A model generated the notes under the pieces. The model saw only the letters and a program-made list of their open reading frames with translations. It made no database searches and was not told the origin of the DNA. From IMG/VR virus record IMGVR_UViG_2526164652_000007: DNA of 7,979 bases. One strand, given 5' to 3'. The position numbers and the translations under genes were made by a program. This document shows, in pieces, positions 4,731-5,066 of the stretch. This DNA is from a virus (lineage: Duplodnaviria; Heunggongvirae; Uroviricota; Caudoviricetes). The stretch's first letter is position 1. Each line of letters starts with the position of its first letter.

Positions 4731-5066
4731 TTATGGACTTTGTTGTTTTAGTCCATAAGGACATATTTGCAGAGTGCAACGGTTATTAAAGCATTCATTC
4801 AATACGTTATCTGTATTTGTAGGGCATTCCTGGCTGTTTTTGATTAAATTCCAGAATGTTTTATTGAATGGTACTACGTTGTAAATGGTTACAGGTAGCA
4901 CTTTGTTATTGAGTATGATGCCTGTGTGAGTCAGTGTAAATATACTTTCAGGAGGTAAGAAAGCATCCGATTGATACCAGATTATTAATTTTATTTTACT
5001 CCATATGACTGAAAAAGATATTCCGCATGATGGCTGGATAACTGTATCAATCACAATCCACTTCAT
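4731..5066 (-). CDS. hypothetical Cys-containing small protein (111 aa), AT-rich cargo gene convergent with ORF A
   Basis: ATG at 5066-5064 (minus) with AAGGAAA SD and a 6-nt spacer; stop TAA at 4733-4731. Product [18 protein letters not shown]...[34 protein letters not shown] has a C-terminal C-x10-C-x4-C-x4-C cluster. Local GC is about 25-30% by hand count. No family recognised. Confidence 0.6.

Follow-up and report, generated by a model that had tools for sequence, protein, structure and literature searches.

Locus organization

The DNA analysed here (the window) is a stretch of 7,979 nucleotides from the Caudoviricetes record IMGVR_UViG_2526164652_000007 of IMG/VR. Its gene order is that of the iraL prophage of uropathogenic Escherichia coli CFT073, a lambdoid element inserted beside potC/potD: DUF968, RusA, Q antiterminator, tRNAs, iraL on the opposite strand, DUF1737 and holin (Table 1). 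The same order was also found in strains JJ1886, E275a and 1EC213, and iraL is carried by four phage records with names beginning vB_EcoS-. A conserved-stretch locus search with the Escherichia alignment returned six loci, all of them from Escherichia or Shigella.

Table 1. Coordinates of the features in the window
Feature	Position	Strand	Evidence and remarks
DUF968 gene	1168-2217	plus	
RusA gene	2230-2586	plus	
Q antiterminator gene	2601-3422	plus	
tRNA genes	3566-3641, 3743-3819		between Q and iraL
GC-rich hairpin, 9-bp stem	4675-4696	unstranded	terminator scan; 35 nt past the iraL stop
iraL coding sequence	4731-5066	minus	111 codons plus stop; ORF listing and translation
Cys4 tail, residues 81-105, C-P-x9-C-x4-C-x4-C-P-Y-G (C81, C92, C97, C102)	4752-4826	minus	family alignment; absent from 8twd
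PmrD-like beta-barrel core, residues 1-78 (RssB-binding part in IraM)	4833-5066	minus	phmmer, AF2, Foldseek
Shine-Dalgarno AAGGAAA	5071-5077	minus	read from the sequence; inside the 5' UTR reported for CFT073 iraL mRNA
Putative transcription start, A of ACATCACCAGC...	5099	minus	from CFT073 5' RACE; 5' UTR of 33 nt
-10 element TATACT	5107-5112	minus	7 nt 5' of the putative start; identical in CFT073
Probable -35 region	5127-5134	minus	1-nt deletion relative to CFT073 (TTTACA to TTTAAT); putative hexamer assignment
DUF1737 gene	5311-5514		beyond iraL; followed by the start of the lysis genes

The open reading frame at 4731-5066 runs from ATG to TAA and its translation gives exactly the 111 residues first quoted for it. 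The GC content of the frame is 34.2%, versus 47.7% for the whole window, and it lies within an AT-rich trough at approximately 4650-5400. The AAGGAAA sequence ends 4 nt before the ATG; the 6-nt spacing given in the preliminary description is obtained when counting from the AGGA core, and stands only in that form. The four C-terminal cysteines reported there as C-x10-C-x4-C-x4-C are present as C81, C92, C97 and C102, and a fifth cysteine, C14, is located in the N-terminal domain. Frames of at least 111 residues arose in 37 of 2000 dinucleotide-preserving shuffles of positions 4600-5300 (1.9%). The length by itself is moderately unusual, but it is only suggestive and not decisive, and it is on homology (see below), not on length, that the frame, as had been proposed, is accepted as a real gene.

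An AT-rich gene on the opposite strand, placed as cargo between Q and the lysis cassette, fits a separately acquired insert. The low GC content had been taken earlier as a sign of acquisition apart from the phage backbone, and the placement in the prophage agrees with that reading.

The remainder of the window was surveyed as well. ARAGORN assigns the two tRNA genes as tRNA-Met(CAT) and tRNA-Arg(TCT), in that order. At the corresponding place in related prophages the PGAP annotation reads tRNA-Ile and tRNA-Arg, and the CAT tRNA is therefore probably of the lysidine-modified Ile type. Directly after the tRNA genes, an AT-rich frame of 117 codons with a TTG start (3930-4283, plus strand) had no match in Pfam or NCBIfam, and the matching stretch of 1EC213 is left unannotated by PGAP; this frame is perhaps not a gene. 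The short frame at 4319-4450 corresponds to an annotated DUF3927 protein. An IS3-family element (approximately 5928-7084, minus strand; orfA 6782-7084, orfB 5928-6746) cuts the lysis genes. A class II holin-like start, MDQMEKVTTGVSY..., is encoded in the frame at 5717-5887, and the IS3-family element stands where the holin should continue, so the lysis cassette of this prophage is disrupted. Further IS-type frames lie at 387-725 (minus) and 7782-7979 (plus). At most 71% of the window is covered by any one complete E. coli genome; this suggests a host rich in IS elements, such as Shigella. A second AT-rich patch at 7174-7447 (GC approximately 37%) holds overlapping frames of 85 (minus) and 72 (plus) residues, for which Pfam and NCBIfam gave no family matches.

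Identity as iraL

The encoded protein is identical in 110 of 111 residues to IraL of CFT073 (c1429, WP_000871291.1), with I51 in place of M51, and the coding DNA in 335 of 336 nucleotides, the sole differing base being at position 4914. IraL was described in uropathogenic E. coli CFT073 as an IraM homologue encoded on the potB island (Hryckowian et al. 2014, PMC4045071). The operational definition of iraL in that paper is an identity of at least 95% over the full coding region, and the values given above place the window gene within it. The NCBIfam model NF007393 ("anti-adapter protein IraM") gives the protein 162.3 bits, above its cutoff of 121, with an alignment that spans residues 1-110 and profile positions 1-113 of 114. 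IraM of strain K-12 is 63% identical over 107 residues. In phmmer searches residues 1-78 matched chain 8twd_A ("Anti-adapter protein IraM", IraM 1-78) with an E-value of 3.8e-32. A megablast search over 5426 complete E. coli genomes, with the region as query, matched thousands of records, and in thousands of genomes PGAP labels the frame "anti-adapter protein IraM". A dN/dS ratio of 0.14 between the window gene and K-12 iraM is a sign of purifying selection. The frame at 4731-5066 is thus an allele of iraL, a prophage-borne RssB anti-adaptor gene of the IraM family that is already known and characterised.

This assignment does away with the earlier view of the gene as an orphan, to be approached by remote homology and possibly concerned with toxicity or phage resistance. 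As an alternative, a horizontally acquired orphan protein that uses its cysteines for metal or disulfide chemistry in a toxin or phage-defence role draws on a cysteine cluster that is real and conserved, and on the position of an AT-rich gene in a slot where prophages keep cargo genes. Against it stand a named and curated family of published function and solved structure, and searches none of which gave evidence of toxicity or defence. We give that alternative next to no credence.

Predicted core fold and binding to RssB

The predicted AF2 structure has pLDDT values of 87-96 across residues 1-78. Foldseek superimposed the model on 8twd_A with an rmsd of 1.2 Å over 77 columns and a TM score of 0.90 normalised to the target. 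In the published crystal structure of the IraM-RssB complex, a PmrD-like beta-barrel made up of IraM residues 1-78 touches the two RssB domains as well as the helical linker, and blocks the 4-5-5 face that sigma-S requires (PMC10844676). The contact residues defined by that structure fall into clusters I-III. All five residues of cluster I, which faces the RssB N-terminal domain (I4, I6, W22, K26 and I42), are identical in the window protein; cluster II retains three of five, with T13S and L75I, and cluster III two of four, with H63N and I64V. The four substitutions in clusters II and III are conservative.

In two-hybrid assays IraL bound full-length RssB and, as an isolated domain, the N-terminal receiver domain only; IraM had been reported to bind both RssB domains (PMC4045071). 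The retention of cluster I together with the changes in the C-terminal and linker clusters fits this outcome, in which binding to the N-terminal domain is kept and the signal for the C-terminal domain is lost. His-tagged IraL and CBP-tagged RssB of CFT073 co-purify in both directions, and CFT073 iraL raises the level and the stability of sigma-S in the logarithmic phase (PMC4045071). The window copy would be expected to bind RssB and to stabilise sigma-S in the same way, given its identity of 99% to the CFT073 protein.

The modelled core also superimposes on PmrD structures (TM 0.71-0.75, with 0.75 for 4hn7), and IraM, like PmrD, stabilises its partner in the phosphorylated state; both points would suit a protein that guards, in place of RssB, some other phosphorylated response regulator, e.g., PmrA. 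The identity to PmrD is only 13-20%, versus 99% to the RssB-binding IraL, and a scan of the protein against the local Pfam copy gave no match even at E-values up to 10, the PmrD family PF11183 included. Such a role is very improbable, and RssB is retained as the partner. A precomputed table assigns PF11183.15 to homologues of the protein, and a newer version of the PF11183 model than that in the local copy may take in the IraM/IraL homologues.

As a separate observation, large Kelch-repeat beta-propeller proteins match positions 3-46 of the IraM-family profile in multiple stretches, with E-values down to 1e-12. Pfam confirms that these are Kelch proteins, and the matches probably reflect a summed resemblance of beta-hairpin repeats and not homology.

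The C-terminal cysteine tail

All four tail cysteines are invariant among 17 Escherichia homologues. When 1.84 billion representative proteins were searched with a profile, approximately 65 small family members with less than 50% mutual identity were retrieved, and the four cysteines are present in 63 of the 65 matches whose alignment reaches the motif, across the Enterobacteriaceae. Of the other two, one has an internal deletion and one a C-terminal truncation. The possibility raised beforehand that homologues lack the cysteines is thereby answered in favour of the motif. A further 20 matches end short of the motif or run on in sequence that does not align with the family, and are read, from their sequences, as fragments or frameshifted copies. 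In the ten clusters that were looked up, the named members are from Salmonella salamae, Citrobacter, Enterobacter, Klebsiella, Cronobacter, Kosakonia, Intestinirhabdus and Dryocola. In a family alignment of 49 sequences, with identities down to 21%, C81, C97 and C102 are the sole invariant columns, and C92, W72 and P103 are conserved at 98%; this alignment favoured full-length sequences, and the unbiased count for the cysteines is the 63 of 65 given above.

The tail is absent from the crystallised IraM, which comprises residues 1-78; it was removed, full-length IraM being insoluble and proteolysed, and was described as a less conserved part with predicted flexibility (PMC10844676). IraM 1-78 still makes a stable complex with RssB (PMC10844676), and binding can thus do without the tail. 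Mean column entropy in the family alignment is 2.47 for the tail versus 2.22 for the core, and dN relative to iraM is 0.34 versus 0.22; the synonymous sites of the tail are too saturated for a dN/dS ratio. The tail is slightly more variable on average, so that the published remark and an invariant cysteine skeleton are compatible. With a deeper alignment, the AF2 confidence of the tail went up from 33-45 to 50-71. Neither cysteines nor zinc are mentioned for IraM or IraL in the IraM structure paper and its preprint, in Battesti 2013, in Micevski 2015 or in Hryckowian 2014.

The tail was compared with known metal-binding folds. A tail profile searched against the PDB gave only CCCH zinc fingers, at non-significant E-values of 0.07-4.9, besides defensin-like matches that were also non-significant. 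Pfam scans of 40 tails gave one match to zf-CCCH (E = 0.26) and no significant metal-binding family. A CCCH-type zinc finger (C-x8-C-x5-C-x3-H) was rejected for the tail, with no significant match and with a fourth ligand that would be Cys and not His; the CCCH-like spacing is a lead and not evidence of membership.

In cytoplasmic proteins, a set of four invariant cysteines is in most cases a metal site. For the IraL tail we put the prospect of a metal site at nearly even, if a little short of it. The metal or disulfide role proposed earlier for the cluster is a plausible idea from the sequence. We advance more tentatively, and with some doubt, the broader proposal that the motif C-P-G/x-N-x7-C-x4-5-C-x4-C-P-Y-G could be a metal-binding (zinc, possibly iron-sulfur cluster) or redox-sensitive module in all anti-adaptors of the IraM/IraL/RssC type. 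If so, the stability or activity of the anti-adaptor would be governed by the module, and RpoS levels would thereby be coupled to metal or redox status. Later work found higher IraL levels in a fur mutant of CFT073, which would be compatible with such a module, though as an association only.

Promoter, putative transcription start and probable terminator

The upstream criterion for iraL is an identity of at least 96% to CFT073, with a sigma-70 promoter and a mapped start. Over approximately 250 nt upstream, the window differs from CFT073 in four places, namely point changes at 5069, 5100 and 5256 and a 1-nt deletion at 5129. The 5' RACE end of the CFT073 iraL mRNA, ACATCACCAGCAAGGCATAAACAAGGAAACCA (PMC4045071), recurs in the window except for one C-to-T change at 5069, and on this basis the start is placed at 5099. 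The TATACT hexamer, 41 nt upstream of the ATG, had been named a possible -10 element in the preliminary description, and its distance of 7 nt from the position that matches the published CFT073 start fits this. The window copy retains an intact -10 element, start region and Shine-Dalgarno sequence. In later work the iraL mRNA was induced 1.6 log2-fold at 37ºC.

The allele with the deletion in the probable -35 element is shared with JJ1886 and E275a. A 71-nt promoter query matched 1438 of 5426 complete E. coli genomes, 163 of them at 99% identity or more and 1264 at 95-99%; sampled examples of the latter group are one base longer than the window allele. From these counts the promoter allele of the window is a minority form. 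The expression level of the window copy is uncertain, given the deletion in the probable -35 region.

A copy with an intact coding sequence could be silent or in the process of pseudogene formation, with little contribution to sigma-S. The deletion relative to the allele with the mapped start would point in this direction, as would the second copy of JJ1886, iraL2, which carries a -35 mutation and of which the authors do not know whether it is expressed (PMC4045071). The neighbouring lysis genes are interrupted by IS elements, so that the locus of an IS-ridden prophage may be decaying, and frameshifted or truncated family members are common in the databases. On the other hand, the frame is without defect and one conservative residue away from a functional protein, the remaining signals are intact, and at least 163 complete genomes keep this promoter allele without change. 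The intact frame and the persistence of the allele argue against full silencing; a silent copy is unlikely.

The GC-rich hairpin between the convergent genes is also kept in CFT073. It has a T-run on the plus strand only and is followed by no U-tract on the iraL strand. It is probably a terminator for plus-strand transcripts from the Q and tRNA side, and for iraL it would be at most a weak one.

K-12 iraM is regulated by Mg and PhoP. Inspection by eye of the region upstream of iraL for a PhoP box gave one half-site-like GGTTTA without a second half-site, and the candidate was dropped.

Proposed mode of action and comparison with known systems

On the whole, we hold with high confidence that the window gene encodes an IraL anti-adaptor, with a PmrD-like core and a Cys4 tail. 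The gene is an AT-rich insert on the opposite strand of a lambdoid prophage, between the Q antiterminator and tRNA genes and the lysis genes, and would be expressed from its own sigma-70 promoter, by analogy with CFT073. The PmrD-like beta-barrel of residues 1-78 would bind the response-regulator-type adaptor RssB. Bound RssB would no longer pass sigma-S (RpoS) to the ClpXP protease, sigma-S would build up, and the general stress regulon would be primed. The Cys4 tail would most likely be a small metal-binding module of the zinc type that stabilises or regulates the protein.

Compared with CFT073 IraL, the window copy has the same length, prophage slot, neighbours, -10 element, start region and downstream hairpin; it differs in residue 51, in the three point changes of the upstream region and the deletion in the probable -35 element, and in its IS-broken prophage. 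K-12 IraM (YcgW), an anti-adaptor of Mg starvation, shares the PmrD-like core (8twd), the Cys4 motif and NF007393 with the window IraL, whereas the C-terminus of the window IraL is four residues longer and the two promoters are unrelated and do not align. The K-12 iraM gene adjoins the e14 prophage remnant, while iraL occupies the slot between Q and the lysis genes. RssC of Salmonella and the IraM-named proteins of Klebsiella, Cronobacter, Enterobacter, Citrobacter and Kosakonia, compared as one group that includes RssC, have approximately 110-125 residues and identities of 21-41% to IraL. As a group they share the core pattern and the C-P-G-N...C...C...C-P-Y-G tail with IraL, but they are much more divergent, and the spacing from the second to the third cysteine is usually 5, versus 4 in IraL. 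PmrD, a connector protein and the protector of phospho-PmrA (4hn7, 2jso, 2rqx), has the same fold of beta-barrel and helix as IraL residues 1-78, at 13-20% identity; it differs in its length of 81-88 residues, its lack of a Cys4 tail and its partner.

At the K-12-like chromosomal site of E. coli ECGI0523, iraM has a frameshift after approximately residue 22 and internal stops, and is therefore a pseudogene. Many database entries of the IraM family are similar fragments or frameshifts.

Significance

The iraL gene was described in 2014 and is annotated routinely by the NCBI pipeline; as a gene discovery the present case is ordinary and already known. The conservation of the Cys4 tail goes beyond the IraM/IraL literature cited above and, together with the promoter polymorphism, is a minor loose end. 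Two points may interest those who study RpoS proteolysis: nothing in the family is better conserved than the tail cysteines, which are absent from the only structure, and two iraL promoter alleles are in circulation, of which that of the window has the deletion in the probable -35 element. About a quarter of the complete E. coli genomes carry iraL, as judged from the promoter region (1438 of 5426) and from a copy of at least 95% identity (approximately 1417). The gene is an example of prophage cargo that rewires a core regulator of the host, namely the stability of RpoS.
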